Assembly (NCBI GenBank): GCA_050953885.1
Contig: JBMNNJ010000001.1
Location: forward strand, 9,137 to 73,136
Direction of reading: 5' to 3'
Source of the DNA: Patescibacteria group bacterium
GTDB lineage: Bacteria; Patescibacteriota; Microgenomatia; 0-14-0-10-38-17
DNA length: 64,000 nt
A model generated the notes under the pieces. That model was given only the letters and a program-made list of their open reading frames with translations. It had not been told where the DNA came from and searched no databases. A program made the position numbers and the translations under genes. Positions 4,976 to 60,536 of this stretch are shown one piece after another (position 1 is the first letter of the stretch; every line of letters begins with the position of its first letter).

Positions 4976-5007
4976 AACGATGTTTTTCCCGCCAGTTGAG
5001 TAAGGTC

Positions 5008-23037: not shown

Positions 23038-23301
23038 TTTCCCTCCAATTTTTTAATTGCCGGAGGGGATTAACTACAAAAGCTCCCCGTCAGCTGATGG
23101 TTCTTACGGAATCCACCCGCCAATCTTTCGATTGGTAACCTGCAGAAGATAACACTGGCGAAAAGCTTTCGCCTCTTCTGCAGGATTTTCTTGCCATGCC
23201 CAAAGGCTTGCGCCTCTGAGTTTAGACAATATTATTGTTAAGGTGATTATATAAAATTAGGGGTAGCTTTTCAAGTCTTCGTAATGTTCAGTTAACAGTA
23301 A

Positions 23302-41974: not shown

Positions 41975-43203
41975 GGAAATGTGCGGTGTCCAGGACATGC
42001 TATACACTTCATGAGGTTTGGGTATGAGGAATATGTAAGAAGAGTGTTAAAATTGGTGGGTGTTAATTTTGAGAGTGTAGTAAAGGGGGTGAAAAAGCAT
42101 GAGTCCTGGAATCCATGGAATCCGGATAGACTACAAGGAATTAAGAAAGATTAATCCAGAAGCAGCCAGACAAACAGTGATTGAGTATCTAAAGACTAAT
42201 GGCCACAACATTGCTGATACCGCCAGGGTTTTTAGGGTCAACAGGACAGTGGTTTATGACATCTTGGCAAAAAGCAAAGAGGGCAATCTTAAAGACAGAC
42301 CCAAGATACCAAAACACCAGCCCAACAAGACACCAGCCAAGACAGAAGGTAAAGTCATTAAGGCCAAGAACAAAACCCACCTGGGGCCAAAAAGATTATC
42401 ACGCTACCTTGAGAAACATGAAGGGATTCTTGTTCCTCCAGGAACAATCAGGCACATTCTAAGGAGGAATAAAGACAGGCTTACTTACAAACTAAAATCA
42501 AACAAGAGAAGAAAACAACCAAGGGAGTTTGTTGACTGGTATTCAGCTAAACCTTTTGAGATTGTCCAAATGGATATCAAATTCATTAGGGATCAGAAAG
42601 CCCTGACTAAAAAGCAAATTATTCATCTTAACCAATATGATATTCCCAACTATCAATGGGGAGCCCTGGATGTTAACTCTAGGTTTAAACTAATTGCTTA
42701 TTCCAAGGAAAAATCTTGGACTAATGGTTTGTGTTTTTACCTTTGGACTATTTCCTGGTTAAGGTCTCATGGGGTTAAATCAGAGATTGCCTTTACTGTT
42801 GATAATGGTGAGGAATTTGGGGGTAGATCCTGGTTGAAGGTCAAAGAGTTAAGAAAACTGATCAGGGGTTTTGGCTGTAGATTAATCCAGAACCACAAAG
42901 GTCATCCTGAGGAGAATGCTCATTTGGAAAGAAGCCATAGAACCGATGACGAAGAGTTCTACATTCCCAGGGTCCTACAGATTAAGAGCAAAAAAGATCT
43001 CTTGAATGAGGCCCTGGGTTACATTTATTACTACAACAATGTCCGGGAACACTCATCCTTAGACTATCAAATACCCTACCAATATCTGAAAATGCAATTA
43101 CCAGAGATTGATGATAACATACGTTATGTACAACCGATTATCCTTGATGATGTCTCGGTAAAACTAGGCCCTTGGAGTGGATACAATGTCTTGGCACATC
43201 ACC
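41975..43203 (+). mobile_element. IS element copy 2 (identical to copy 1, opposite orientation)
   Basis: Identity with 26483-27716 reverse complement begins at about 41975 (gggaaatgtgcgg) and ends at about 43203 (cacatcacc). Confidence 0.8.
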
Positions 43204-43322
43204 GAAATTGTTTTCCCGTCCAATCATGGTATTTTTCCTCAACCATTTGGCGTTCTTTTTCAACTCGTTGGTGGCGTTTTTCTAATTCGGCAGGAATAAC
43301 TTTTTTATTTTTCTTTAAATAA
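42099..43322 (+). CDS. DDE transposase, copy 2 (the ORF reads through the IS end; the in-element protein ends near 43205)
   Basis: Identical to the 26480-27592 product for about 367 aa; the last about 40 codons lie outside the IS and overlap iscU. Confidence 0.75.
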   Translation: MSPGIHGIRIDYKELRKINPEAARQTVIEYLKTNGHNIADTARVFRVNRTVVYDILAKSKEGNLKDRPKIPKHQPNKTPAKTEGKVIKAKNKTHLGPKRLSRYLEKHEGILVPPGTIRHILRRNKDRLTYKLKSNKRRKQPREFVDWYSAKPFEIVQMDIKFIRDQKALTKKQIIHLNQYDIPNYQWGALDVNSRFKLIAYSKEKSWTNGLCFYLWTISWLRSHGVKSEIAFTVDNGEEFGGRSWLKVKELRKLIRGFGCRLIQNHKGHPEENAHLERSHRTDDEEFYIPRVLQIKSKKDLLNEALGYIYYYNNVREHSSLDYQIPYQYLKMQLPEIDDNIRYVQPIILDDVSVKLGPWSGYNVLAHHRNCFPVQSWYFSSTIWRSFSTRWWRFSNSAGITFLFFFK

Positions 43323-44755
43323 TTATAAATTGCTTCGCTTAAGGCATCGGCGGCCAAAACCGAGCAGTGAATTTTTACCGGCGGCAAGCCTCCCAAGGAA
43401 TCAACGATTTCTTTTTGGCTAATTTTAAGAGCTTCGTCAAGGGTTTTGCCTTTGGCCATTTCGGTAATTTTTACGCTGGTGGCAATGGCGGCCACACAAT
43501 TATGGACAACATAGCCTCTTACTAAATAAGATTCAGAATGATTACTCATTTCAAGATTTGCTACTAAGCCCTGGTATTTTTTTAGTTTTATTTCTTTTAT
43601 CGGGACAAGAAAATGGTTATCAATATAATGGAAAAAGTGTTTTTTCCGTTTTAATCGGAAAGATATCTCATAAATAGGTTTAGCATTTATTTTCCTTCCT
43701 TCAATGTAATTTCTATTAGAGTAATTGCCTTCCTTGATAGACGAGAAAATTCCCCCCCTTGACAATATTTCTTGGATTTGGATGGCTAACTTCCTGGAGG
43801 CAGTTGCTACCCTATAGGTTTTAAAATCTTGAGGACGACGATGATATTCGTTGCCATCACCATTAAGGTATCCCGTAATCATTTGCCATTGTTTAGAAAA
43901 AGGGAGGAGAAGAATTTCTTCAGAAAGCCTCTTTTTATAGGCATACTTGCCGACGACAGAATTAAAGAACTTAGCCCATTTTCTAGAACAAAAATATATT
44001 TCACAAACATTTTTTCTTATCCTGAAGCTAGCATTCTTACCAGTAATATTTTTAATTAACTGTCTAACTTCATTGATAAGTTTTTTTTCTTTTTTGTTGA
44101 AGGCGAACGCAACAGCTCCATCATTGGCGATAAGATAGCCCTCGGCAAGATAATAACCCAAAAGCAGAAGCAACTCTTTAGAGTAAAATTTTGAATCCTT
44201 TATGGTTGTATTTGGCTGGTAAATGATATAGTCTCCCGGTTTCAGCTTGAATGCAGGGATAAATTCTGGCGATTGTTGTTTAAGTTTTTCGTGGTCTATT
44301 CTTAGCCAAGCGCTACCGCTTTTTCTGCTCAAGGGAATTTTATCTCTTTTAATAGCTAGCACAGGATGATCGGGTGTTATTGAAAATTTATTTAAGCGTG
44401 AGACAAAAGGAATAATCTCTAATATTTGGCCGTCATATTTACGGATAGATTTTCTTTTAACCTTGGTCTTAATTCCTCTTCCGTCTAAAACAAAGTCAAA
44501 ATTTTTGAAATTACCAATTTTTTCCCAATCTCCTTCATTAGCTAAAATTTCTTCTTCAAGTGGCAGACAGCCAAAAGTCTCAAATTTGATATCTTTAATA
44601 ATTTCCTCACCTTTGGCGTTTTTGCCTATTTTAAGATAAAGTTGCATCACATCGCCACAGACAATATTGCCCACTTTGCCCACGCCGTCCGGGTTTTTAA
44701 TTCGGCCGTAGTTTTTAACATTACGGAAGGCTTTTAAAACTTGTTGATTGTACAT
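43199..44755 (-). CDS. iscU: Fe-S cluster assembly scaffold IscU/NifU containing a large intein
   Basis: Exteins: MYNQQVLKAFRNVKNYGRIKNPDGVGKVGNIVCGDVMQLYLKI...IKFETFG + CVAAIATSVKITEMAKGKTLDEALK...VKIHCSVLAADAL reconstruct a canonical IscU (conserved Cys x3); downstream of iscS. Confidence 0.8.
   Translation of the reverse strand: MYNQQVLKAFRNVKNYGRIKNPDGVGKVGNIVCGDVMQLYLKIGKNAKGEEIIKDIKFETFGCLPLEEEILANEGDWEKIGNFKNFDFVLDGRGIKTKVKRKSIRKYDGQILEIIPFVSRLNKFSITPDHPVLAIKRDKIPLSRKSGSAWLRIDHEKLKQQSPEFIPAFKLKPGDYIIYQPNTTIKDSKFYSKELLLLLGYYLAEGYLIANDGAVAFAFNKKEKKLINEVRQLIKNITGKNASFRIRKNVCEIYFCSRKWAKFFNSVVGKYAYKKRLSEEILLLPFSKQWQMITGYLNGDGNEYHRRPQDFKTYRVATASRKLAIQIQEILSRGGIFSSIKEGNYSNRNYIEGRKINAKPIYEISFRLKRKKHFFHYIDNHFLVPIKEIKLKKYQGLVANLEMSNHSESYLVRGYVVHNCVAAIATSVKITEMAKGKTLDEALKISQKEIVDSLGGLPPVKIHCSVLAADALSEAIYNYLKKNKKVIPAELEKRHQRVEKERQMVEEKYHDWTGKQFR
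43499..44569 (-). other. intein of 357 aa with LAGLIDADG homing-endonuclease domain, inserted before the conserved IscU active-site Cys
   Basis: Starts CLPLEE (Cys1), block B TPDHPV, two LAGLIDADG-like motifs (LLLGYYLAEGYL; GYLNGDGNE), ends VVHN followed by +1 Cys. Confidence 0.75.
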
Positions 44756-44756
44756 G

Positions 44757-44885
44757 AAAAAAATTCAAAATTCAAAAGTCAAAATTCAAAAGTGCAAGTA
44801 AAAATTTAAAATTAAAACAAAAAACTTTTGACTTTTAACTTTTACATTTTGAATTTGTTTGCGATTTATCCGATAGTTAGCCTCG
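44757..44885. repeat. AAAAG-heptamer palindromic intergenic element (between iscS and iscU)
   Basis: aaaattcaaaagtcaaaattcaaaagtgcaagtaaaaatt mirrored by aacttttgacttttaacttttacattttgaattt. Confidence 0.65.
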
Positions 44886-44917: not shown

Positions 44918-46084
44918 TTATTTCCCTTTTCCAAAAGGCGAAAGGCGCCTTAGTTTGGCGATCACTTTAGGTAAAACTTCTAACACTTTATCAATTTCTC
45001 CCTCCGTTGTCCAGCGGCCTAAGGAAAGCCTTAAAGAGCCGTGGGCTTCCTGCGGCGCTAAACCGCAAGCTAAAAGAACATGGCTTGGTTCCAGTTTTGG
45101 CGAGGAGCAGGCCGAAGCGGTGGAGGCGGCAATACCGTAACGGTCTAGTTCAAAAATAATCGCCTCGCCCTCCACAAATTCAAACCAGAAATTAACATTA
45201 TTGGCTAGCCTTTTTTGAGGATGGCCGTTAAGATGAGCGCCGGGGATGGTTTCCAAGACGCCTTCAATTAGCTTATCGCGCAAATGGGTAATTTTTTTGT
45301 TTTCCTCATTCATATTCTCCAAGGCAATGCTCACCGCCTTGGCAAAACCCACAATGGCGGGAATATTGACGGTAGAAGAGCGTTTACCAAATTCCTGGCC
45401 GCCGCCATGAAGAAGCGGCTCGATAGCCACGCCCTGCCTTAAATAAAGGCAGGCGGCGCCTTTGGGGCCGTAAATTTTATGAGAAGAAGCGGTAAGAAGA
45501 TCAATATTGTCTTTTTTAACATCAAGGGGGATTTTCCCTAAGGTTTGGGCGGCGTCGGTATGAAAATAAGCGCCGTGTTTTTGGCAAATTTTGCCAATTT
45601 CGGCAATGGGTTCAATGGTGCCGATTTCGTTGTTAGCATGCATAATGGAAACAAGAATGGTGTCTTTTTTGATTTTTGCCCCTACCTCCTGAGGAGAAAC
45701 TAAACCATCGCGATCAACGTTAACTTTTTCCACGATAAAGCCTTGGCTTTCAAGCCAGCGGGCACTTTCCAAAACACAGGGATGTTCAATGGCGGAAACT
45801 AAAAGATGGCGGCCACGTTGGCGGTTGGCAAAAGCAATTCCTTTCAGGGCGAAATTATTGCTCTCGGTGGCGGAACCGGTGAAGATGATTTCCTCCGGGT
45901 TGGCGTTGATGGCCTGAGCAAGAGTTTGCCGGCTTTTTTCTAAAGCTTTCTGGGCTTCTTGGCCAAAAAAGTGGAGAGAGGTGGAATTGCCAAATTTTTG
46001 CCGCCAGAAAGGCCGCATCGCCGTTAAAACTCGTTTATCCACCGGCGTCGTTGCGGCGTAGTCAAGATAAATGCGGTGTTTCAT
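44918..46084 (-). CDS. iscS: cysteine desulfurase (IscS/NifS, class V aminotransferase)
   Basis: IYLDYAATTP start, PLP-lysine region SSHKIYGPKG, C-terminal active Cys loop (ASTASACSS). Confidence 0.85.
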   Translation of the reverse strand: MKHRIYLDYAATTPVDKRVLTAMRPFWRQKFGNSTSLHFFGQEAQKALEKSRQTLAQAINANPEEIIFTGSATESNNFALKGIAFANRQRGRHLLVSAIEHPCVLESARWLESQGFIVEKVNVDRDGLVSPQEVGAKIKKDTILVSIMHANNEIGTIEPIAEIGKICQKHGAYFHTDAAQTLGKIPLDVKKDNIDLLTASSHKIYGPKGAACLYLRQGVAIEPLLHGGGQEFGKRSSTVNIPAIVGFAKAVSIALENMNEENKKITHLRDKLIEGVLETIPGAHLNGHPQKRLANNVNFWFEFVEGEAIIFELDRYGIAASTASACSSPKLEPSHVLLACGLAPQEAHGSLRLSLGRWTTEGEIDKVLEVLPKVIAKLRRLSPFGKGK

Positions 46085-48971: not shown

Positions 48972-50732
48972 ATGGCCACTAAAAATAATTCTCGCAAACT
49001 TCATTTAGGCAAAAGGCTTTTGGCTTATTTTAAGCCTTTTTGGCCAAGATTAATTTTGGTCGGTTTACTTCTTCTTTTAGGGATTGGTTTTAATCTTCTG
49101 GAGCCTTATTTTTTAGGTAAGATTATTGACGAAAAACTATTGGTTGGCGATTGGGAAGGGGCCCGGAAAATGATTTTTCTCCTGCTGGGGATTTATGGGG
49201 GCGCTTGGCTGACGCGGCTTCTTCAGGCAAGACTAATGGCCAAGATTTCCCAGGAAGCTTTATTTTCTCTGCGGCAGGATCTTTTTGTTCACCTGCAGGG
49301 GCTTTCGATCCGCTTTTTTGACCAAAGAGCTCATGGAGATTTAATGAGCCGGCTTACTAACGATATTGAGGCGATTAATCGCGCCCTAGGCCAAAACCTG
49401 CTTCAACTGGCAAGCAACTTTTTATCGTTAGTAGGCGTTTTGGTTTTCATCTTTTTTCTTAATCTTCCCTTAGCTTTAACGGTGGCTGTCAGTTTCCCTT
49501 TTGTGGTGGGGGTGACGATTTTAGTGACCAAAAGAACCAGGAAGGGTTTTCAGGCTTTGCAAAAAGAAATCGGCTCTCTTAATGGGGTTTTGGAAGAGCA
49601 AATTGGGGGGGTGCGAACCGTTCAAGCTTTTTCCCAACAAGAGAAAAGCTTGGTTTTATTTTCCCAAAAAAACGAAGCGGTTTGCCAGCGGGGTATTTAT
49701 GCTTCTACCTTTGCCTTTCTCCTTCCCCCTTTAATTAATATTTTTGCCAATGCCGATATTGGTTTGGTAGCGGGCGTGGGGGGATTTTTGGCCTTGCAGG
49801 GAAAGGTGGGCATTGGTTTGGTGGTGGCATTTATTAACTATTCCCGCCAGGTTTCCCAGCCGGTGCGTGAGCTGGCGGATATTTATAATTCTTTTCAGGA
49901 GGCCATATCTGGGGCGGGGCGGGTTTTTGAAATTATTGACTACCAACCGGAAATCAAAGATGCTCCTAATGCCCAAGATGTCAAGCTTCGGGGGAGAGTT
50001 ATTTTTGATAAGGTAAGTTTCTCTTACGATGAGGAAAAACCAGTTTTAAAAGAGATCAGTTTTACGGTTGAGCTGGGGCAGACATTGGCCTTGGTTGGTC
50101 CAACCGGGGCGGGAAAAACCACCATTGCCAATCTTCTTTTCCGTTTTTACGAGCCCGGGCGGGGAAAAATTTTTCTCGACGAGTGGGAAATAAGGGAGAT
50201 TAAAATTACTTCTCTTAGGCGACAATTGGGCTTGGTGCTCCAGGATCCCTTTCTTTTTTCGACGACTATTTTGGAAAATATTCGTTATGGCCGGCCAGAG
50301 GCAAGCCAAGAAGAAGTGATCGCGGCGGCCAAAATTGCCGGCGCTCATCAATTTATTAAGCGCCTGCCAAAGGGGTATCAAACAGAACTTTCTTGGGGGG
50401 GAACGGATTTAAGCCAAGGTCAGCGTCAGCTTTTAACCATTGCCCGGGCGGTTTTAGTAAATCCGGTGATTTTGCTTTTGGATGAGGCCACCAGCAGCGT
50501 CGACACTCGTACCGAAATAGAAATTCAGAAAGCTTTAGATCGGTTGCGCCAAAACCGAACCAGCATCGTTATTGCTCACCGGCTTTCAACAATTAGAAAC
50601 GCTGACCAGATTTTGTTTATTAAAAATGGCCGGATAAAGGAGCGGGGCACTCATCGGGAGCTTTTGGCCAAAAAAGGCTTTTACGCTCGTTTTTACCAAG
50701 CGCAGTTTGGAGGGCTAAAGTCTAGAGAATAA
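48972..50732 (+). CDS. ABC transporter permease/ATPase (type I exporter) subunit B
   Basis: TMD + NBD with GPTGAGKTT, LSQGQRQL, LLLDEATSSVD; adjacent to its paralogue, so likely a heterodimeric exporter. Confidence 0.85.
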   Translation: MATKNNSRKLHLGKRLLAYFKPFWPRLILVGLLLLLGIGFNLLEPYFLGKIIDEKLLVGDWEGARKMIFLLLGIYGGAWLTRLLQARLMAKISQEALFSLRQDLFVHLQGLSIRFFDQRAHGDLMSRLTNDIEAINRALGQNLLQLASNFLSLVGVLVFIFFLNLPLALTVAVSFPFVVGVTILVTKRTRKGFQALQKEIGSLNGVLEEQIGGVRTVQAFSQQEKSLVLFSQKNEAVCQRGIYASTFAFLLPPLINIFANADIGLVAGVGGFLALQGKVGIGLVVAFINYSRQVSQPVRELADIYNSFQEAISGAGRVFEIIDYQPEIKDAPNAQDVKLRGRVIFDKVSFSYDEEKPVLKEISFTVELGQTLALVGPTGAGKTTIANLLFRFYEPGRGKIFLDEWEIREIKITSLRRQLGLVLQDPFLFSTTILENIRYGRPEASQEEVIAAAKIAGAHQFIKRLPKGYQTELSWGGTDLSQGQRQLLTIARAVLVNPVILLLDEATSSVDTRTEIEIQKALDRLRQNRTSIVIAHRLSTIRNADQILFIKNGRIKERGTHRELLAKKGFYARFYQAQFGGLKSRE

Positions 50733-50753
50733 AAAATTTTCAAAAGCAGAACG

Positions 50754-50876
50754 GAGTAGCGCAGTTTACTGCGCGCTGATCTTGGCGCGAACTAAAGTTC
50801 GCTACTCCATTTTGTTGTGAATTAGCGCAATTTATTGCGCGCCAATTCCCGCGCGAACTAAAGTTCGCTACTCCAA
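50754..50876. repeat. tandem 66-68-bp structured repeats (x2) downstream of the ABC operon
   Basis: Unit 1 ggagtagcgcagtttactgcgcgctgatcttggcgcgaactaaagttcgctactcc (large hairpin + U tract); unit 2 shares gcgc..ttta..gcgcg..cgcgcgaactaaagttcgctactcc. Confidence 0.6.
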
Positions 50877-50891
50877 AAAAAAGAATGGAAT

Positions 50892-50918
50892 AGCGCGCTT
50901 CAGCGCGCGCTTATTTTT
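50892..50918 (+). terminator. rho-independent terminator (agcgcgcTTCAgcgcgcgct + uuauuuuu)
   Basis: GC-rich 8-bp stem followed by a T-run. Confidence 0.6.
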
Positions 50919-50986
50919 GGCGCATCCCATCTGTTTGCCCTTTGGCGAAAAGTTTGCTATCCGGTTTATGTCCCAGCGATATAATA

Positions 50987-51062
50987 TTTTTGCATCAGTA
51001 GACTATATTACGAATACAAGGGTAAAAAGTAAAGGAGAAAATTATCAAAATTAAAACCAATC
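50987..51062. repeat. left direct repeat (about 75 bp) flanking the AT-rich island
   Basis: ttttgcatcagtagactatattacgaatacaagggtaaaaagtaaaggagaaaattatcaaaattaaaaccaat is about 85% identical to 55749-55822. Confidence 0.7.
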
Positions 51063-51248
51063 AAGGATAAAAAAGCGTTTTTAGAGCCTCTGCGAAACAA
51101 ATCTTAAAACTGGCGGCTTCATTCGCCTTAATAACAGCCCTGTCGTTTTTTTAGTTTTAAAATTTTTTAAAAAAGTGAAACTATTGTACTATACAACAAG
51201 TGTATAATTGTATTTTAATTAAAATACCTACCATTAAGCACTATCGCT

Positions 51249-51758
51249 ATGAATACTCCCGAAAAAATTGGTATAACTAGAAAAAACTTGATGACACGTG
51301 AGACTGAGAAAAGACTAAAAATAGCCTTAGCCGAAGTTGAAGAAAAAGCAAAAATGGCATTAAAAGCTGTTGGTGAAAGTGCGGGACCAAGTAGTGATTG
51401 GCACGATAATTTCCCTTTCGAACAGGCTAATCGTGATTTCGAACTTTATTCTTCAGAAGTAACAATGATTAAAAAGCAATTAGAAAATCGAGAAATTATA
51501 AAACCAAGGGGAGAAATAGCGGAGGTAGGTGTAGGTAATGAGGTTGTTATTATCCTTAATAATGAAGAAAAGCCTGAAGTTTTTACGTTGCTAGGTAGTG
51601 CAGACTCATTTACGAAAACTGGCTGGCTTTCATGTGAATCGCCACTAGGGTCAAGCCTTATAGGCAAAAAAGTTGGGGAAATGATAATATTTTCCGTAGG
51701 GGAAAAGGTCATAAAAGGAAAGATTCTTGAAATTCGTCCCGGGAAATTTGATTTTTAG
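51249..51758 (+). CDS. GreA/GreB-family protein (Rnk-like, regulator-of-NDK type)
   Basis: C-terminal FKBP-like Gre domain: EVFTLLGSADSFTKTGWLSCESPLGSSLIGKKVGEMIIFSVGEKVIKGKILEIRP; N-terminal coiled coil lacks the acidic GreA tip. Confidence 0.65.
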   Translation: MNTPEKIGITRKNLMTRETEKRLKIALAEVEEKAKMALKAVGESAGPSSDWHDNFPFEQANRDFELYSSEVTMIKKQLENREIIKPRGEIAEVGVGNEVVIILNNEEKPEVFTLLGSADSFTKTGWLSCESPLGSSLIGKKVGEMIIFSVGEKVIKGKILEIRPGKFDF

Positions 51759-51795
51759 AAAAAATATGATAATATTGTAGAAAATAACAAAAGTA

Positions 51796-52329
51796 ATGAT
51801 TTCTATGTCTAACGCCCCTGTTTTCGAGTTTGAAAGAAAATTTATCGTTAAGAAAATAAGCTCGCTTCCTTTTGATCTAGCTAAGGCGCAAAAGGCCGAT
51901 ATTAAACAAGGTTTTTATTCAGGTTTGCCTTCTCCTTTGCGAATTAGAGCGATAAATGACGAATATACCCTGACGAAAAAATTTGTGTTAGGAGAAAATA
52001 AGGGCCAATTAGAAGAAGTAACTCTTCCTCTTAAAAAATCAGAATTTAAGGTTCTTTTCCCTCGCGCTTATAAGAAAATTTTCAAAACCCGTTATTCTTT
52101 TTGTTGGCATGGTTATAAGGTCGATCTTGATGTGTTTAGGGGGAAGCTTAAGGGCTTAATTATTGCCGAATTTGAATTTGCCAGCAAAGAGGAGATGGAA
52201 CAATTTCTTCCTCCCTCATTTTTAGGGGCGGAAATAACCCAACAAGAATGGGCCACTAATTCTCGTCTTGCCCTTTTAACTTTTAGCCGGCTCCAAAAAA
52301 TTCTTGTCCGTTATGAAAAAACTATCTGA
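51796..52329 (+). CDS. CYTH-domain protein (triphosphate tunnel metalloenzyme / CyaB-like)
   Basis: N-terminal ExExK signature FEFERKFIV; size about 177 aa fits CYTH. Confidence 0.6.
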   Translation: MISMSNAPVFEFERKFIVKKISSLPFDLAKAQKADIKQGFYSGLPSPLRIRAINDEYTLTKKFVLGENKGQLEEVTLPLKKSEFKVLFPRAYKKIFKTRYSFCWHGYKVDLDVFRGKLKGLIIAEFEFASKEEMEQFLPPSFLGAEITQQEWATNSRLALLTFSRLQKILVRYEKTI

Positions 52330-53569
52330 AGATAAGATAATTGATTTAAAGTTGGATTTACTAATGCAAGGGGTTGATTGTGATTTTAATAATTTGAAAA
52401 CAAAAAGGGATATTGATTCTTATCGTGTAAATAAAATTAGAGTGTCTGATAGACACTTTATTAACCCTAAAAGTAAAAAAAGAAAATATATTCCGGATGA
52501 AATTCTTATTGGGAACCATAATTTTTACCAAACAATTGCTAAAGTTTACTATAATCGAAACTCTAATTTTATTCTCACTTATCAAAAAACGGTCGATAAG
52601 TTTTTAATAAAAGATAAGAAAAAGAATTGCTATTTAGAGACAGAGGTAAACTTTATTCCTTTAAAAAGCTTTTCGAAGAGAATTTTTACCACCAAAGAAG
52701 GTAAAAAAATACCGGAGAATGAAATTGTCACGCCAATTTCGATTGATAGATTGACAATAAATCCCTTTGATGGGTGTTCTATGTGGTTAAATGGAAATGA
52801 GTGTAGTTTTTGTGGGGCTAGTCCGAAGAGAGTGATTGGGCCGCAGCAAATAAAGCCATCAATAACAACTATTTCCCAATACCAAAGCATTGGGGCATGG
52901 TGGAATAGCCAAAAGGAAACAGTCTTGGAGGTTATTTGTGATTCATTCCAACATATTAAAATATCGGACTTTAAACCGCATTTACACTTTGTAATCACAA
53001 CGGGTTTTCTATATGGTTTTGAATGGGACATAGTTATAGAAATTTTGAGCGTGATTAAAGAGTATTTTAAGGTAGGCGAAACTGATTCACATTTGTCTTT
53101 AATGCCGCCAAAGAATATTGACAAGCTTGAAACAGTAAAAAAACTTGGCATAAAAAACGTTGCTTTTAATCTTGAATGTTTTGATCAAAAAGTTTTTGAG
53201 GCTATTTGTAAAGGGAAAAACTTTTTTATTGGTTATAATAATTTTAGGGAAAAGCTAAGGGAGGCTGTAAAAATATTTGGACGTGGTCACGTAAGGACAA
53301 ATTTTGTTTTAGGATTAGAAGACTTAAAAAACCTTATAAAAGGTTGTGAAATTTTAGCTGAAGAAGGTATAGTTTCTGATTATACTATCTTCTTTCCCAG
53401 ACCAGCCTCTGGTATACAAAAAAAGACTAAGGATATATTGACTAAAGCGGAAGTTATCGATTTTACCAAAAATTTGGTAAAAATTTATCAACTCTATGAC
53501 TATAGACCTTTTACGTGTAATTTAAGTTCAAGGACTAGTATTGCCAACGATATTTATAATTTGCTTTGA
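52304..53569 (+). CDS. hypothetical 421-aa protein with CX8CX2C cluster (possible variant radical-SAM or metal-binding enzyme)
   Basis: DGCSMWLNGNECSFCGAS motif plus NVAFNLECFD; not a canonical CxxxCxxC, so the family is not asserted. Confidence 0.35.
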   Translation: MSVMKKLSEDKIIDLKLDLLMQGVDCDFNNLKTKRDIDSYRVNKIRVSDRHFINPKSKKRKYIPDEILIGNHNFYQTIAKVYYNRNSNFILTYQKTVDKFLIKDKKKNCYLETEVNFIPLKSFSKRIFTTKEGKKIPENEIVTPISIDRLTINPFDGCSMWLNGNECSFCGASPKRVIGPQQIKPSITTISQYQSIGAWWNSQKETVLEVICDSFQHIKISDFKPHLHFVITTGFLYGFEWDIVIEILSVIKEYFKVGETDSHLSLMPPKNIDKLETVKKLGIKNVAFNLECFDQKVFEAICKGKNFFIGYNNFREKLREAVKIFGRGHVRTNFVLGLEDLKNLIKGCEILAEEGIVSDYTIFFPRPASGIQKKTKDILTKAEVIDFTKNLVKIYQLYDYRPFTCNLSSRTSIANDIYNLL

Positions 53570-53765
53570 GAAAAATATTTTGCCTATGGATCCCGATTAT
53601 TTAAGGTACGAATCGTTTGAAAACCTATATGTCGAGACGCCACTTAAATGGGGTTTATTGTGTTTCAATCAAGCTCACCAGAAGCGAGAAGTTTTAAAAC
53701 TAACGACAGATATTGATGAAATACTATCATTGTTAAAAAAAAGGCTGGGAAAAGCATGCTGGTAG
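53541..53765 (+). CDS. small ORF (possibly the 5' part of a frameshifted gene continuing at 53797)
   Basis: ORF only; overlaps the upstream gene end; separated by 31 bp and a frame change from the next ORF. Confidence 0.2.
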   Translation: MPTIFIICFEKNILPMDPDYLRYESFENLYVETPLKWGLLCFNQAHQKREVLKLTTDIDEILSLLKKRLGKACW

Positions 53766-53796
53766 GAATCAATATATTTTACGTTCTCCTGAGAAA

Positions 53797-54630
53797 GTGC
53801 TTTGTGACCTTTCAGAGAGAGAAATTAACCCTACAGATAATTTAGATCTGTTGGTAGATTACTATACTTTTTTAAAAAATATAAATCTGGCGTCTTTAAT
53901 AAGAGAAATAAAAAGAGAAAATAAACACATTAAAGACCTAGAAATTATTCCCCTAACAAATCATATTTTTACAAGCGAGGTTAGAGTAGCAGCATCAGAT
54001 CAAAGAATAGACGTTGTGCCGGGTTTGATTTTTGAGTATTATCTGAAAACAAAGGGAATCAAAAATGTTGTTACTAATAAAAAATTGCCTAATAAATTAA
54101 GTGCGATGGATATTTTTGTAAAAAATTTTTATCAAGAAATCAGAAGATATTATCGTAAAATAGGTTATGAGTTGGTCCAAAATCCTGAAATTCCAGAAAT
54201 GGATTTTTGGGATAAATTTAGAGGAGAATATGATATTTATGTTTTTATCCCCAAATCGGCGATTAGATATTGCCTTAGTTTCTTAAATCGGGTTGGAATA
54301 GAATACCTTAATAAGGTTTGCCTTTGGGAATATCATACGGGTAACGATACAAATAAAGAGCTAGTTATATTTAAAAAAAATATATGCGGCAAAAGAGTCT
54401 TGGTGGTTGATCGCTCCTTTTCTAGCTACACGTTAACACATTTATCTCAAAAAATTAAAGAGAATGGCGCAGAAATAGTGGATAGACTCGCTATATTTCC
54501 AAAATCGCAAGCAGCGATCTTAAATAGTGAATATTGCTTTTTTTGGCATTCATTACTTAAGAGCCAGAAAGTTGATTTGAGTGGAGAATGGGCTCTCAGG
54601 CTTTTTAAGAAGGTGAATCATTCAATTTAA
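53797..54630 (+). CDS. hypothetical protein with degenerate type-I PRTase-like PRPP loop
   Basis: GKRVLVVDRSFSSYTLTHL resembles the hydrophobic-strand-DD-x-TGxT PRPP-binding motif, but degenerate. Confidence 0.3.
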   Translation: MLCDLSEREINPTDNLDLLVDYYTFLKNINLASLIREIKRENKHIKDLEIIPLTNHIFTSEVRVAASDQRIDVVPGLIFEYYLKTKGIKNVVTNKKLPNKLSAMDIFVKNFYQEIRRYYRKIGYELVQNPEIPEMDFWDKFRGEYDIYVFIPKSAIRYCLSFLNRVGIEYLNKVCLWEYHTGNDTNKELVIFKKNICGKRVLVVDRSFSSYTLTHLSQKIKENGAEIVDRLAIFPKSQAAILNSEYCFFWHSLLKSQKVDLSGEWALRLFKKVNHSI

Positions 54631-54635
54631 CGCCG

Positions 54636-55304
54636 TTAGTTTTCAAACAGAAGTTTTAAATAATTATTCATAATATTTATTTCTCTTTTTACCGATTCTA
54701 TACTGTCACTTCCATGAACTATACCGTTGTAATTATTTAGAGCAAATTGACCGCGGATAGTATTAGGATTTCTTCTTTCTTCAACATTCCAGTCCCCCAT
54801 TTGTGTTCTCCAAAAAGAAACAGCGTCGCCTTTGTTAGACCAGAGCAATAAAACAGTAGTTGGGCCCGACATCATTAAATTAGCAAATTCTTCCCAACGA
54901 TTTTGAAATTTATTTTTATAAACGTATGGTAATAGTTCTTGCTGTTTTCTCTTAGGCTCTCCATCATAAAATTCGTTTATTGTTTTTTCATCAAAAATAA
55001 GAGATAATTCAAAAATTATTTCGAGCGGAGGTTGTATAGCTTTTTTAATAGCATGGGCCAATTCGACATCACTTAGACCGGGTAAGTTAAGTTCCGCAGG
55101 TTTTATCATCGCTAACGTAATAAAGCCTTGTTCTATAGCTTCTGCAAAGGAGGGACTTTCTATCACTTGGATGATATTTTTTAATTTTAGTTTTTCTGTC
55201 TCTTCTAGAGAAAGTTCTTTATATTTATTAACAATTAGGTTTTCTCTTTGTAAAACAGGAGGAGTTTCTGCCTGTTTTAATGTATAAATTAAATTTTCGT
55301 GCAT
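54636..55304 (-). CDS. atypical nucleoside diphosphate kinase-like protein (222 aa, N-terminal extension + insertion)
   Basis: TLAMIKPAEL (NDK IIKP motif), MSGPTTVLLLW..., catalytic-His motif NGIVHGSDSIESVKREI. Confidence 0.65.
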   Translation of the reverse strand: MHENLIYTLKQAETPPVLQRENLIVNKYKELSLEETEKLKLKNIIQVIESPSFAEAIEQGFITLAMIKPAELNLPGLSDVELAHAIKKAIQPPLEIIFELSLIFDEKTINEFYDGEPKRKQQELLPYVYKNKFQNRWEEFANLMMSGPTTVLLLWSNKGDAVSFWRTQMGDWNVEERRNPNTIRGQFALNNYNGIVHGSDSIESVKREINIMNNYLKLLFEN

Positions 55305-55345
55305 TTTTAATTCCTCCTTTTTCTAACTTTACAAGAGATAATTTT

Positions 55346-55570
55346 TTAGAGTTTAAGTTGTCTTGCTAAGTTTTTATTTTTTAAAGTATTAAGGGACCCT
55401 ACATAGACTACTCGAAACTTATAGCCCTTAGATTCACGGTCATTTCCGATAAACTTTCTAATCTTCTTTTTTATTTTACCACGACTATTAAAATGTTTGT
55501 GCTGACAAGGGTCATTGGTAATACCTGAAGGAATACCAACAACCATACCCGATAGGTGTTTGGTAGTCAA
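55346..55570 (-). CDS. small ORF, possible transposase C-terminal remnant
   Basis: Weak resemblance (N..G.IKKKIRKF..G....F) to ISL3-type transposase C-termini; very uncertain. Confidence 0.2.
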   Translation of the reverse strand: MTTKHLSGMVVGIPSGITNDPCQHKHFNSRGKIKKKIRKFIGNDRESKGYKFRVVYVGSLNTLKNKNLARQLKL

Positions 55571-55748
55571 AAGCTTGGTGGGATTTCTTAGTGCTTGTAG
55601 AGTGCCTGGTATCCATCCTGTTAGGTTAAGATAACTTAATATTCGAAAACATTTGAAAGCCTAATAAAGGAGGAAAAATAACCCGGGGGTTGTTTTAAGC
55701 AGCAGCAATTTTTTCTTAGTAGGCGCTGACTTTATTTATATTTTAAAC

Positions 55749-55822
55749 CTTTTGTATCAGTAGACTATATTACGAATGCAAGAACAAAAGTAAAAGAGAA
55801 ATTATCGTATTAAAATCAATTC
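55749..55822. repeat. right direct repeat (about 75 bp) flanking the AT-rich island
   Basis: cttttgtatcagtagactatattacgaatgcaagaacaaaagtaaaagagaaattatcgtattaaaatcaat. Confidence 0.7.
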
Positions 55823-55842
55823 CGGCTGTTTGGGAGCATAAA

Positions 55843-56862
55843 CTAGAGCCGACGGACTTTTTTTCTGATGGTTTCCAAAATATAGACAGGAAAATATTTT
55901 AAGGGATCGATAATAAGGTCGTGGGCGGGAACATATTTTACCTCTTCTCCCCCAAATCCTCTTTTAAAAACAGAAACGCCGTAGAAGCGGTGTTTGGTTT
56001 GATTTTTGTCAACAATCCCCCAAAAATTGAATCGGGGGATTTCTAACTTTTGGGCGTCATTAATTGCTTGCCAAAGGATAGCCGGGGCGGCTGGTAAGCG
56101 CCTCCCCGCCTCGGTACTGGCGCCAAAATGGTAGCTTGATTCGGTGGGGTAATGAATAATCAGGGCATAAGCGAGCGGCTTTCCTTCTAAGACTGCTTTG
56201 TAAAGAAGCGCCTGATGGTGCTTAGCAAAGGAGGAAAATTCGGCGCGAATTAAAGGAAGAGAAAAAGGGACAAATTTCTGCCTTTTGGCAGTTTGGACCT
56301 GAACGTGGTAGAACTCATCAACAGATTTAATATCGGTGGTAGAAACGATCTTAATCCCTAATTTTTTTGCCTTTTTAATTTCGTATCGGGTGGTTTTGCG
56401 CATTTGCGCCAGTATCGCTTCCGGGTTTTGTTTGAGATTAAGCTGGAGGGTATGCTCTGCGGTCAGGTGCATGGGCGAAGGTCTTAATTGGTTTTCTTTA
56501 AGTATTTGGCGGATTTCTTCGCTGTCTTTAATTTGGGGGCGAATCCTGACAAAAGCGCACTTCTCTTTCTTGACAATTTCAAAAATTTGCGCAAAGAAGA
56601 ATTTTATTAGGTTTTTCTCTTTCCAATTGACAAGCGGGCCGCCGGCAATGGTTAAATACCGGCCTCTTTTGGCGTTTTCCACCACCCCTAAGGAAACGCC
56701 GATGATTTTCTTTCTTTCAAAAATTCCCCAATAATAAACTTTTTTACCTAAACTTTCGTGCGTTTGGCCATAAGAAAAAGACTGCAAAAAATTGCTTTCG
56801 GGGCAAGAAGTAACAAACTCTTCCCATTTTTGGCGATCGTTAACTTCTTTTATGCTGGCCAT
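55843..56862 (-). CDS. FemAB-family peptidoglycan bridge-forming aminoacyltransferase
   Basis: FLQSFSYGQTHESLG N-terminal FemAB signature; length about 339 aa. Confidence 0.7.
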   Translation of the reverse strand: MASIKEVNDRQKWEEFVTSCPESNFLQSFSYGQTHESLGKKVYYWGIFERKKIIGVSLGVVENAKRGRYLTIAGGPLVNWKEKNLIKFFFAQIFEIVKKEKCAFVRIRPQIKDSEEIRQILKENQLRPSPMHLTAEHTLQLNLKQNPEAILAQMRKTTRYEIKKAKKLGIKIVSTTDIKSVDEFYHVQVQTAKRQKFVPFSLPLIRAEFSSFAKHHQALLYKAVLEGKPLAYALIIHYPTESSYHFGASTEAGRRLPAAPAILWQAINDAQKLEIPRFNFWGIVDKNQTKHRFYGVSVFKRGFGGEEVKYVPAHDLIIDPLKYFPVYILETIRKKVRRL

Positions 56863-58073
56863 TGGTTAATTAATTTGGTAATATATTTTACTTCTTTGGT
56901 GGCGATCGTCGGTTGGGTAGGTAGGTTGAGGCATTGCTGGCAAGTTTCTTCGGTAATGGGGCATTGGCCCTTTTGATAGTTTAAAAAAGAGAGATTATTG
57001 GCAGGAGTAATCGGCTGGGGATACCAGTGCTTGCCAATAATAACGCCGTGTTTTTTAAGATATAATTTTAACTTTTCGGGTTTTTCTAAAAGAATGGGGT
57101 AGCGAAGATATATTCCCTCCTGATTCCAAGGAGGTTTGGTAATTTTTGGCTGATGAAGATTTTCTTGGTAATAAAGAGCATTTTTTTGCCGTTGCCGATT
57201 AAAGCGGGTTAGTTTTTTAAGCTGATGATTGGCCAGAGAAGCCAATGGTTCCGGCAGGCGGCGGGGGAAGAAAGGGGGAGTTTGTTGGTCGCGTTCCTTA
57301 GGATAAATTGCTTTAGAAATTAGTTTTGTTTTTTGTGATAAAAAAAGGATAAGTTTGCCTAAATAAAGAGAATAGGTTTTTTTTGATAAAAAACTAATCG
57401 GAGGATGAAGAAGCTGTTGCGCGGTCCAAAAAAAAGAAGGATAGGGCAGGGATTGGTAAAGATTTTCTACCGGTTTAACTAAATTTTTGTTGTTTACCAG
57501 CAGGGCTCCGCCAAAAACGGAGGAGATAATCTTATCGCGGCCAAAACTTAACATGGTAATGTCGCCAAAACTGCCAATTTTTTTCTCCCGATAAGTTGCT
57601 CCTAGGCTGTGGGCGCCATCTTCGATCAAGTAAAGCTTCTTTTTTTGGCAATAGGTGGTGATTTTTTCCATGTTTGCCGGCTGCCCAAAAGTATGCTGAA
57701 CAATTAAGGCTTTGGCGACTGGATTTTGGGGAAGAATATCAGGGTTGAGGTTAAAATCTTCTTTTTGGATGTCAAGATATTCCGGTGTTAGGTTGTTCCA
57801 AAGAATGGCGTTAGGAACGGTGCTACAGGTAAAAGCTTGTAAAAGAATTTTTGAGCCCGGCGGCAGATTAAGCGCTTTTAAGCCCAACATTAAAGCGGAA
57901 CGGCCGGCATTAAAAAGAAAAATCGCCTGTGTTTGCGGAAATAACTGCTGCAGACTTTCTTTAAGTTTTTCTTGGTTTTTTTTGCCGGTCCACGAGAAGG
58001 GAGAGGAAAGCCATCTTAAAGCCAGAAAGACATCATCGGACTCAAGGTTGGGAGATAAAGAAATATGGATCAT
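56850..58073 (-). CDS. DegT/DnrJ/EryC1/StrS-family PLP-dependent sugar aminotransferase
   Basis: DGAHSLGATY...SFGRDKIIS (PLP Lys) motifs. Confidence 0.75.
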   Translation of the reverse strand: MIHISLSPNLESDDVFLALRWLSSPFSWTGKKNQEKLKESLQQLFPQTQAIFLFNAGRSALMLGLKALNLPPGSKILLQAFTCSTVPNAILWNNLTPEYLDIQKEDFNLNPDILPQNPVAKALIVQHTFGQPANMEKITTYCQKKKLYLIEDGAHSLGATYREKKIGSFGDITMLSFGRDKIISSVFGGALLVNNKNLVKPVENLYQSLPYPSFFWTAQQLLHPPISFLSKKTYSLYLGKLILFLSQKTKLISKAIYPKERDQQTPPFFPRRLPEPLASLANHQLKKLTRFNRQRQKNALYYQENLHQPKITKPPWNQEGIYLRYPILLEKPEKLKLYLKKHGVIIGKHWYPQPITPANNLSFLNYQKGQCPITEETCQQCLNLPTQPTIATKEVKYITKLINQWPA

Positions 58074-59635
58074 TAGTTTAATCTGCTAATTGTTTTAACC
58101 AGGCTTGAGGGTAAGCGGCCTTCCAAAAGAATTGTCGCCGGCGTTTTAATTAATTCTTTTAGCTCTTCAAACTTAATGTTTGGTTTGACAAGATGAATTT
58201 TCTCTTTGTCTTTTCCTAAACCGGCCTGAAATGATTTTAGCAAAGAGGGAGAAGTAGTTAAAATTAAATCAGTAAACCTTGATTTCTTGCCTAAATTTTT
58301 ATGAATGGCAAACCCGTTTTTTCCTAACTCCTTAATGCCATCGCTAACAAGAATTTTAAACCCCTTTGATTTGGCAAGAATACCCAGCGCCGCCTCAAAT
58401 CCAACAGGGTTGCTATTGTAGGAATCATCAAGCAGGGTGATGTGAGGGGAAATGATTTTGATTTTTATCCCCGAATCGATTTCCGGCAGGTTGGCAACTG
58501 CTTTTTTAAGGTGCTTTTGGGGGACTCCCAAAGTTAGGGCAACGGCTAAGGCGCCAGTTAGATTTTCTAAATCTTGGGGGAAAATTTTATTGGTAGTAAA
58601 TTTAATTTGGCCCTGACGGCTGTTTATCTTGAAAACAGTTTTATTTTCGCTTTTTTTGATAATTAATCCCAGAAAATCGGCTTTTTGCTGATTATTCTTT
58701 AAGGCATAGGTAATAATTTTTAAGTTATCTTTTTGGGCGCGTTGGATAATAGGTTTGGTGGAGGAATGGGTGGCGTTGACAAAAAGTACCCCTTTGAGTT
58801 TTAAACTTTGGGCGATTTCATATTTGGTTTTGAGAAGATTTTCTTTGTTTCCGAATAAGGCCAGGTGCTGGGGGGCGATACCGGTTATGAGGGCAAAATC
58901 GGGCTTAATAAGTTGGCAAAGAGCCTTGATTTCTCCTTTTTTGTAAGCGCCCATTTCGCAAAGAAAATATTTTGTTTGGCGATTAAGTGATTTAATCGCT
59001 TCCATTATTCCCAATTCGGTGTTATAGCTTGCCGGTGTTTTTACTGTTGGCGCATAGTCTTTCAAAAGTTCAAAAAGAAGATGTTTGGTTGATGATTTTC
59101 CGTAGCTGCCGGTAATGGCGATAACTTGAGGATGATATTGGCTCAAGGTTGAAACTATCCGGCGACGTTTAAATCTTAAGACGATTTTTAATAGTAGGCT
59201 GGTTAAAAAAGCGCTTGCCGGAAGGATAAAAAACCCCAGAAGATCAAACAAAATCAGAAGACTTAAATTTAGCTTTTTCCATTGAGAAATAAGAATAACG
59301 GTAAGCAAAAAAGAGTTGAAAAGAAAAATTAAACTTCTGAAGGTAATTTTAGGCCGTTTTAGCTGGCGGGAAAGTAATTCATAAGAAAGTTTTGCGGTCT
59401 CTGCCAATAAGATAGCCGGATAAAAAGAAGAGAGTGGTTTGAAAAAAATAACCGCCGCCAGCAGAAGCAATTTTGCCAACATCAAAAAAATTTCTGTTTT
59501 CCTTTGTCCTTCTTTTGTTTTCAAAAAAACCCAAAAGCGATCAAGACGGTATTCTTTTATTTGCCACCAAGAGGTTAGTAATAATTGGCGTCGGCAGAAG
59601 GCGATTGCCCAAATAAAGAGTAAAAATTTATTCAT
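58073..59635 (-). CDS. murF: MurF-type Mur ligase (UDP-MurNAc-tripeptide--D-Ala-D-Ala ligase) with N-terminal multi-TM extension of about 160 aa
   Basis: P-loop ITGSYGKSSTK; MurF signature LLDDSYNSNP; 4-5 TM helices precede the ligase core. Confidence 0.65.
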   Translation of the reverse strand: MNKFLLFIWAIAFCRRQLLLTSWWQIKEYRLDRFWVFLKTKEGQRKTEIFLMLAKLLLLAAVIFFKPLSSFYPAILLAETAKLSYELLSRQLKRPKITFRSLIFLFNSFLLTVILISQWKKLNLSLLILFDLLGFFILPASAFLTSLLLKIVLRFKRRRIVSTLSQYHPQVIAITGSYGKSSTKHLLFELLKDYAPTVKTPASYNTELGIMEAIKSLNRQTKYFLCEMGAYKKGEIKALCQLIKPDFALITGIAPQHLALFGNKENLLKTKYEIAQSLKLKGVLFVNATHSSTKPIIQRAQKDNLKIITYALKNNQQKADFLGLIIKKSENKTVFKINSRQGQIKFTTNKIFPQDLENLTGALAVALTLGVPQKHLKKAVANLPEIDSGIKIKIISPHITLLDDSYNSNPVGFEAALGILAKSKGFKILVSDGIKELGKNGFAIHKNLGKKSRFTDLILTTSPSLLKSFQAGLGKDKEKIHLVKPNIKFEELKELIKTPATILLEGRLPSSLVKTISRLN

Positions 59636-60357
59636 AAACTAAGAAACCAGCGATCAATTTCTTGAGCGAGGTTTTTGGGTTGGTTATAAGGGAGACAGTG
59701 GTCTTCGTTGGGAAAAACCTTAAGAGTTGAGCCAACAATGGTTTTTTTTAAAAAATAAGCGTCAGCAACAGGGGTGGTTTTGTCTTTTTTGCCCCAAAGA
59801 ATGAGGGTGGGAATTTTAATTTGTTTTGCTTTTGGTTTTAAGCTTTCCTCGACAATATTCTTAAAGGTTTCTCTTTTTGTTACGGAAACAATTTGTTTAT
59901 AGTCGCCGGCGCCGGCCAAACGGTAACCAACCTTTTCTAAAAGGCGATAGGCGTCGGGAGATAAATTCTTCAGCGGGCTAAGGCTTTTGGCCGTGGTTTT
60001 AAAAAAGAATCTTTTGAGGGGATTATTGCGGGAAATACCGGCGGCGGCGCAAAGAACAAGAGAATTTAGTTTTGCTTGATTTTTATTTTCCAAGGCCATT
60101 TTCAGGCCAATTCGTCCTCCAAAAGAATGGCCAAAAAGAGAATAAGGCTTGTTTTTAAAAAACTCTCTTGCCTTATCGTCAAGGTAACGGCAGAAATCCT
60201 CTAGCTGCCAAGGAGTTTTTGGTTCAGGAAGGTCAAAAAAAGGCAGTTTGGGTAAAAAGATTTCCCAGCCGAGTTTTTGTAGTTCTTCTTGTAAGGGTTC
60301 AAGTTTTTGGCTGCCCGCTCCCCAGCCGTGGACAAGACAAAGACGCTTAGCGTTCAC
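59632..60357 (-). CDS. alpha/beta-fold hydrolase
   Basis: HGWGAGS oxyanion region and nucleophile elbow GHSFGG. Confidence 0.65.
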   Translation of the reverse strand: MNAKRLCLVHGWGAGSQKLEPLQEELQKLGWEIFLPKLPFFDLPEPKTPWQLEDFCRYLDDKAREFFKNKPYSLFGHSFGGRIGLKMALENKNQAKLNSLVLCAAAGISRNNPLKRFFFKTTAKSLSPLKNLSPDAYRLLEKVGYRLAGAGDYKQIVSVTKRETFKNIVEESLKPKAKQIKIPTLILWGKKDKTTPVADAYFLKKTIVGSTLKVFPNEDHCLPYNQPKNLAQEIDRWFLSL

Positions 60358-60536
60358 AATAACTAATTATATCACCTATAAAGATGTTTTGTATAAAACA
60401 AGAATGCTTATAGGGCATATGGTATTCACTCTGCGTGGAAAATCGGGGCGGGCGATTCTTGAATATGGCGTAAATTTGGAGTATTGAAAAAGCAATTTGG
60501 GAAAAGCGTCGGTTTTTTGCTATACTTATAATCAGG

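Follow-up and report, generated by a model that had tools for sequence, protein, structure and literature searches.

In a 64,000-nucleotide stretch of a Patescibacteria group bacterium genome (assembly GCA_050953885.1, contig JBMNNJ010000001.1; hereafter the window, meaning this whole stretch), we find that the gene for the iron-sulfur (Fe-S) cluster scaffold IscU is interrupted by an insert that is very probably a canonical class-1 intein with a double-motif LAGLIDADG homing endonuclease, placed in frame between Gly62 and the second cluster-ligand Cys. It is a regular intein and not a new kind of element; what is new is its host and its site. We further consider it probably live and still mobile, because near-identical alleles lack it, its ratio of nonsynonymous to synonymous substitution rates (dN/dS) is 0.12, and its splice and endonuclease residues are essentially invariant. 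The gene and the parts of the insert lie as follows in window coordinates, with conservation counted over 121 aligned sequences, namely the query and the best 120 of 127 proteins retrieved by a search with the intein alone.

43199-44755, minus strand: iscU precursor open reading frame (ORF; NifU_N / MisU-type scaffold), 518 aa plus stop
44570-44755, minus strand: N-extein, aa 1-62, ending ...KFETFG and holding the first ligand Cys33 (44657-44659) and Asp35
43499-44569, minus strand: intein, 357 aa (precursor aa 63-419), the stretch missing from the syntenic loci L082, L084 and L085
44531-44569, minus strand: block A, CLPLEEEILANEG, beginning CLPLEEE, with the presumed Cys1 nucleophile (aa 63); Cys in 120 of 121
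44366-44377, minus strand: block B, TPDH (aa 127-130; T127 and H130); H130 in 121 of 121, and T127 and H130 invariant in alignment A2, the 114 homologues used for an AlphaFold2 (AF2) model of the whole precursor
43721-44188, minus strand: LAGLIDADG homing-endonuclease domain, about aa 190-345, delimited by Pfam LAGLIDADG_3, AF2 secondary structure and Foldseek
44135-44164, minus strand: LAGLIDADG motif 1, LLGYYLAEGY, aa 198-207, with presumed catalytic Glu205; Glu in 118 of 121
43853-43882, minus strand: LAGLIDADG motif 2, MITGYLNGDG, aa 292-301, with presumed catalytic Asp300; Asp in 120 of 121
43520-43570, minus strand: block F, GLVANLEMSNHSESYLV, with Asn400 where canonical inteins have Asp; Asn in 120 of 121
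43496-43519, minus strand: block G and Cys+1, RGYVVHN/C (His418, Asn419, Cys420), each residue in 120 of 121
43202-43498, minus strand: C-extein, aa 420-518, beginning with the ligand Cys that is Cys63 of the spliced protein
43364-43369, minus strand: His-Cys of the C-extein (H106/C107 of the spliced protein), with a helical tail at the C-terminus of the C-extein

An earlier note, made from the sequence alone, had read this ORF as an IscU split by an intein, and the Pfam matches to the 518-aa product agree: NifU_N is found in two separate stretches (E 8e-35), together with LAGLIDADG_3 (E 3.6e-11, 43.6 bits vs. a cutoff of 22.5). Deleting residues 63-419 in silico leaves 161 aa that give, in the extein-only comparison with IscU/NifU models which the note had proposed, one unbroken match to TIGR03419 (NifU_clost; E 1e-47; residues 2-126 against model positions 1-120 of 121). 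Because this removal restores a contiguous scaffold match, the intein is 43499-44569 on the minus strand, exactly 357 codons, and its placement immediately before the conserved Cys, as the note had it, is exact by translation, with intein-free alleles lacking the same 1071 bases. The CLPLEE start, the TxxH block B, the two LAGLIDADG-like motifs and the terminal VVHN that it had pointed out are likewise all present in the translation. The predicted spliced junction peptide would read ...FETFGCVAAIATS..., and the FETFG-CVAAIATS joint anticipated in the note occurs exactly in IscU proteins that lack the intein and share 94-98% identity with the spliced extein; one such protein bears the label Candidatus Shapirobacteria. 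In base composition the intein differs from the extein, with a guanine-plus-cytosine content of 34.3% vs. 40.3% (30.5% vs. 40.1% at third codon positions).

Comparison with solved structures places the splice junction on a cluster ligand. The nearest solved relatives of the spliced extein are Archaeoglobus fulgidus IscU/NifU-1 (4eb5, E 3e-42) and the IscU of 7c8m, entered as 'Nitrogen-fixing NifU domain protein' (E 2e-41), neither of which has an intein; both keep the ligand set Cys-Asp...Cys...His-Cys as in the spliced extein, with C33, D35, C63, H106 and C107 aligning to their Cys-Gly-Asp, Cys and His-Cys. Counted across a 5-residue alignment gap, Cys+1 aligns with Cys58 of A. fulgidus IscU, which we take to be a [2Fe-2S] cluster ligand in the 4EB5 structure. 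We found no further copy of iscU in the 64-kb window, and no further intein of the same family.

The same arrangement recurs widely. The search with the intein product, which the earlier note had suggested, returned same-site homologues in at least 120 protein clusters, and the allele is also present in no fewer than 36 genomes of the GTDB species set. NifU_N is also present in 120/120 of the best 120 relatives, whose inteins are 43-90% identical to the query and, two incomplete entries apart, cover it fully. The insertion point is the same in all 121 aligned sequences, and Gly-1, Cys1, the block B His, E205, D300, the penultimate His, the terminal Asn and Cys+1 are each found in 118-121 of them. 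No mini-intein form occurs among the 121, in which lengths stay at 357 ± about 10 aa except in the two incomplete entries. Intein and extein similarity are loosely coupled across the family (r = 0.47), and some pairs share 54% intein identity yet 32-35% extein identity.

Among GTDB species genomes, where the best intein match has 52% identity, the same site is occupied in candidate phyla radiation (CPR) bacteria (Gribaldobacteria, Nealsonbacteria, Saccharibacteria), in other bacteria (Omnitrophota, Caldiserica, Aerophobetes, Armatimonadota) and in archaea (Nano-, Woese-, Pace-, Aenigm-, Micr- and Iainarchaeota, Hadarchaeota, Thermoplasmatales, Methanobacteriota). The earlier note knew of no well-known IscU intein allele; this stands insofar as we found no paper describing one, but the allele is by no means rare in databases and, at the counts given above, is common in public metagenomes. 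Within the family, a subgroup made up of the query, P0001, P0002 and P0008 lacks, at intein aa 148-150, the 'K-C' preceding Trp150 that is present in 109 of the 121 sequences.

Other genomes carry an intein at a second IscU site (site a, VGNPV/C...HN/CGDxM), directly before the first ligand Cys. Site a alone is occupied in L052, L056, L068, L071, L073 and L077, and both site a and the site described here (site b) in L009, L016 and L019; in the window, site a (aa 32/33) is empty. Outside IscU, the closest intein relatives (37-39% identity) are in DPANN archaea (L035-L039, matching at about 5001-6074 in each), where the host is a TPP_enzyme_C protein resembling the beta subunit of 2-oxoacid:ferredoxin oxidoreductases and the junction, VSGIG/C...HN/CGSKTPHF, is again Gly/Cys-Gly. 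Remoter relatives sit at PAH/CWTPWF and in a 4Fe-4S protein.

The AF2 model of the precursor is confident (predicted local distance difference test score 87.3, predicted template modelling score 0.77) and shows the HINT fold expected of a class 1 intein. Its best Foldseek matches in the PDB are whole inteins with an endonuclease, TliVMA first (7qsu, E 2.4e-19), followed by PI-SceI, PI-PkoII and PI-PfuI, with the free LAGLIDADG enzymes I-DmoI and I-Tsp061I (target-normalised template modelling scores, TM-scores, of 0.62-0.69) and IscU itself further down. The modelled endonuclease domain consists of two alpha-beta-beta-alpha-beta-beta-alpha repeats (DSSP elements H193 to E343). As a group, the VMA inteins (TliVMA 7qsu/7qss, PhoVMA 7qst, PI-SceI 1vde/1ef0) match best in structure (E 2.4e-19 to 1e-12, target-normalised TM-score up to 0.68). 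Like the IscU intein, they have Cys1, a His-Asn end with Cys+1 after it, and a HINT domain that houses a double-motif LAGLIDADG endonuclease; they differ in sequence (12-20% identity) and in host, which is V-ATPase subunit A, and the Asn at the block F Asp position is the IscU intein's own. By sequence, the closest solved structure is PI-PkoII, the Pol-2 intein of Thermococcus kodakarensis (2cw7, E 1e-10), with a similar motif 1 (LLGYYxSEGY), motif 2 (GDGD) and block F/G layout, but a different host (DNA polymerase B), a larger size (537 aa) and a canonical VYDL block F.

Two other classes of element were considered and rejected. A class 3 intein (Trp-Cys-Thr, with a block F Cys nucleophile and no requirement for Cys1) is ruled out by the presence of Cys1 and by Asn at the block F position. 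Bacterial intein-like (BIL) domains are HINT domains that lack an endonuclease and usually also a +1 nucleophile, and their hosts are variable or secreted proteins; a BIL domain is ruled out here by the endonuclease domain, Cys+1 and the conserved housekeeping host.

Near-identical alleles with and without the intein allow the insertion to be defined to the base. Three syntenic alleles (L082, L084 and L085) lack exactly the 1071 bases of the intein; L082 is syntenic to the window at 77-87% nucleotide identity and encodes a protein labelled Candidatus Shapirobacteria by NCBI, and it is from this synteny that we take the small-genome host of the window to be probably Shapirobacteria-like. A further locus, L081, carries the intein, with nucleotide identities to the window of 89.4% in the intein and 88.3% in the extein. 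Comparing L081 with L084, an empty allele from another assembly, the flanks are identical at 420/420 positions upstream and 908/910 downstream, and the spliced coding sequences are alike but for one base, the third of the Cys+1 codon, right next to the insertion point. The empty iscU site of L084 reads ...AAATTTGAGACATTTGGCTGCGTGGCGGCAATTGCCACCAGC..., and the single change fits what a very short co-conversion tract in homing would leave. An 'immune' codon signature was also sought in the empty alleles and proved inconsistent, as GGT/TGC, GGC/TGC and GGT/TGT all occur.

Between the window and L081, the intein has a dN/dS of 0.118, its endonuclease part one of 0.144 and the exteins one of 0.031, and the intein is thus under purifying selection of the same order as ordinary neighbouring genes. 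The corresponding synonymous divergence (dS) is 0.43 for the intein, 0.76 for the extein and 0.29-1.6 for neighbouring genes.

Several observations weigh against a canonical and mobile class-1 intein. In block F, an Asp is a commonly conserved helper residue of class 1 inteins (PMC10663303). The window intein has Asn400 there, aligned with the D of VYDL in PI-PkoII, and so does the whole family, the remaining 1 of 121 being an incomplete entry with a gap at this position. Other active inteins also lack the block F Asp, and its replacement by Asn is a deviation within class 1 and no disqualifier. Where block F usually has His, the window copy has Glu, as PI-PkoII apparently does too. The TIGR01445 splicing-domain model matches weakly (17.2 bits vs. 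a cutoff of 24.5), and PF14890 is unreported for the window copy at E <= 0.1, though it is recorded for many homologues. As for mobility, the L081/L084 difference may reflect either a gain or a loss, the latter by precise recombination with an empty allele. A dS clock was dropped as an argument that the intein had recently passed between the window and L081, since the intein's dS falls inside the range of the neighbouring genes and so gives no clock evidence for this.

We infer that the window intein would splice, and would cleave DNA, along the following lines, with the splicing steps taken from those described for class 1 (PMC10663303). The 518-aa precursor would be translated and would be inactive before splicing, because 357 residues part the ligand Cys from the N-terminal half; without a contiguous ligand set, scaffold activity should depend on splicing. 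Cys63 (Cys1), aided by T127 and H130 of block B, would undergo an N-to-S acyl shift to form a thioester, trans-thioesterification would pass the N-extein to Cys420 (+1), and Asn419, with the help of His418, would cyclise and free the intein. An S-to-N shift would then rebuild the peptide bond of FETFG-CVAAIATS, giving the 161-aa IscU and a free 41-kDa intein. The latter would probably cut intein-free iscU at the GGC/TGY junction, and recombinational repair would copy the intein in. Such homing would explain the spread of the allele over CPR bacteria, Omnitrophota and many archaeal phyla.

A first alternative is that splicing is intact and the endonuclease inactive, so that the intein would be inherited vertically and its presence or absence would arise from ordinary homologous recombination between strains. 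The similar divergence of intein and extein between the window and L081 would suit this, and an intein dS within the neighbouring-gene range fits co-divergence. We nonetheless judge it unlikely, given that each of the two acidic residues persists in 118-120 of 121 homologues, the endonuclease part is itself under purifying selection (dN/dS 0.144), no mini-inteins occur at the site among the 121 sequences, the site is filled in very distant bacteria and archaea with intein and extein similarity decoupled, and the sole L081/L084 difference abuts the insertion point, as a short co-conversion tract would.

A second alternative, which is compatible with mobility, is that the intein is kept as a regulator, its splicing gated by redox state or metal through Cys1, Cys+1 and the extein residues Cys33 and Cys107. 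Cys+1 doubles as a cluster ligand, site a immediately precedes the other N-terminal ligand Cys, and there are genes with an intein at both sites. There is also precedent among inteins tied to Fe-S biology. The nearest biological one is the intein in SufB from Mycobacterium tuberculosis, likewise in a component of an Fe-S cluster assembly scaffold, which reportedly belongs to class 1, has Cys as its nucleophiles and alters its splicing under oxidative and nitrosative stress. It differs in belonging to the SUF machinery (not the IscS-IscU/MIS type), to another host protein and to another phylum, and to our knowledge its insertion point is no cluster-ligand residue. In the Pyrococcus abyssi MoaA intein, whose host is an oxygen-sensitive Fe-S enzyme, a disulfide between Cys1 and an extein Cys blocks splicing until conditions are reducing (PMC10663303); here again the host protein is another one, and the disulfide trap is a feature of MoaA. 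On the other side, selfish inteins insert before conserved active-site nucleophiles anyway, and very close strains live without the intein. We regard a regulatory role as doubtful; if it were true, production of the scaffold would track cellular conditions.

It is highly improbable that iscU has become a pseudogene, disrupted by an insertion that does not splice or by a separate gene for an endonuclease. The Asn-for-Asp change in block F is what could be said for it. The terminal Asn and Cys+1 are present, as are all other splice-junction residues, and they are conserved; a single frame of 518 codons is open without an internal stop; dN/dS is 0.03 for the extein and 0.12 for the intein; and the same architecture is found in at least 120 independent clusters. 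Intact splice residues, the open frame and the low dN/dS mean that the gene is not a pseudogene, and the outcomes by which the earlier note would have been overturned did not appear. An assembly chimera or artefact, for which the metagenomic type of the window might be cited, can practically be discounted: 3 contigs, with JGI and Logan as their two sources, encode an identical 518-aa protein, the 88-90% identical L081 has the same structure, and the junctions keep the reading frame with codon precision.

A mobile class-1 intein in IscU also appears to be new to the literature. A full-text search of the library available to us found no paper with a relevant link between inteins and IscU or NifU; the text of the main prokaryotic intein survey contains no IscU intein, though its supplementary tables could still list one, and a 2026 review of Fe-S biogenesis makes no mention of inteins. 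NCBIfam holds intein 'exception' models for some other hosts, and none for IscU matched the precursor. Public records of the intein-bearing proteins name them only 'NifU-like' or 'iron-sulfur cluster assembly scaffold protein', leaving the intein unmentioned.

Around iscU, three further features stand out.

44918-46084, minus strand: class-V aminotransferase (NifS/IscS/MisS-like cysteine desulfurase), the partner of IscU (Aminotran_5, E 6e-78)
41981-43203, plus strand: insertion sequence (IS) of 1223 bp with an rve-type (IS481/IS3-like) transposase, in the last two iscU codons
26488-27710, minus strand: second copy of the IS, 99.9% identical

The aminotransferase lies directly upstream of iscU, a pairing also present in the syntenic L082 and probably an instance of the two-gene IscS-IscU arrangement called MIS in recent reviews (PMC13066941). 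For that type, HscAB, Fdx and IscA should be absent from the vicinity; further neighbours of the pair, in the 64 kb of genome seen, include TatD, an RRM protein and ABC transporters. The nifS-iscU spacer (about 44762-44857, minus strand) contains a long A/U-rich hairpin ending just before the iscU start codon, built of AAAAGTYAAAAG / CTTTTGAMTTTT repeats (minimum free energy -26.8 kcal/mol, z -3.9 vs. shuffles) that are kept in L081, L082, L084 and L085; possible roles are those of a terminator, attenuator or operator. For iscU we see no obvious Shine-Dalgarno sequence.

The IS is not part of the intein. At iscU it is flanked by a 5-bp duplication, GAAAT (41976-41980 and 43204-43208), and it has altered the end of the protein from ...KQFPS* to ...KQFR*, the last codon and the stop (43199-43203) coming from the end of the IS. 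Neither copy of the IS contains a stop for its transposase ORF, and the frame runs on into the neighbouring DNA; the IS is missing from the syntenic loci L081, L082 and L085. Elsewhere in the window, about 9.8 kb (about 50720-60510) between RuvC and the ABC transporters is missing from the syntenic L082; this segment encodes GreA-like, NDK, FemAB, DegT aminotransferase, Mur-ligase-like and alpha/beta-hydrolase proteins, plus three ORFs without a Pfam match. A match to LOOT RNA (Rfam RF03000; 65.5 bits vs. a gathering score of 46.4) lies at 23096-23228 on the minus strand.

With this element, IscU of the MisU type, the central Fe-S scaffold, joins the hosts of inteins, with the splice junction on a cluster-ligand Cys. 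From the natural before-and-after allele pairs (L081 vs. L084, and the window vs. L085), the homing site in uncultured CPR bacteria can be given to the exact base, and an allele found across bacterial and archaeal candidate phyla could help to trace gene flow among these phyla. Because precursors of about 500 aa are labelled plainly as NifU-like or scaffold proteins, length- and domain-based surveys of Fe-S systems in small-genome lineages will misread them. The IscU intein is also an obvious candidate for tests of redox- or metal-conditional splicing: its splice nucleophiles are cluster-binding cysteines, so oxidation, persulfidation or metal binding could hold the precursor unspliced. That the inteins at sites a and b act as conditional switches besides being parasites seems improbable to us, but if they do, this would tie what may be the only Fe-S scaffold of CPR- and DPANN-type cells to their redox and iron status.

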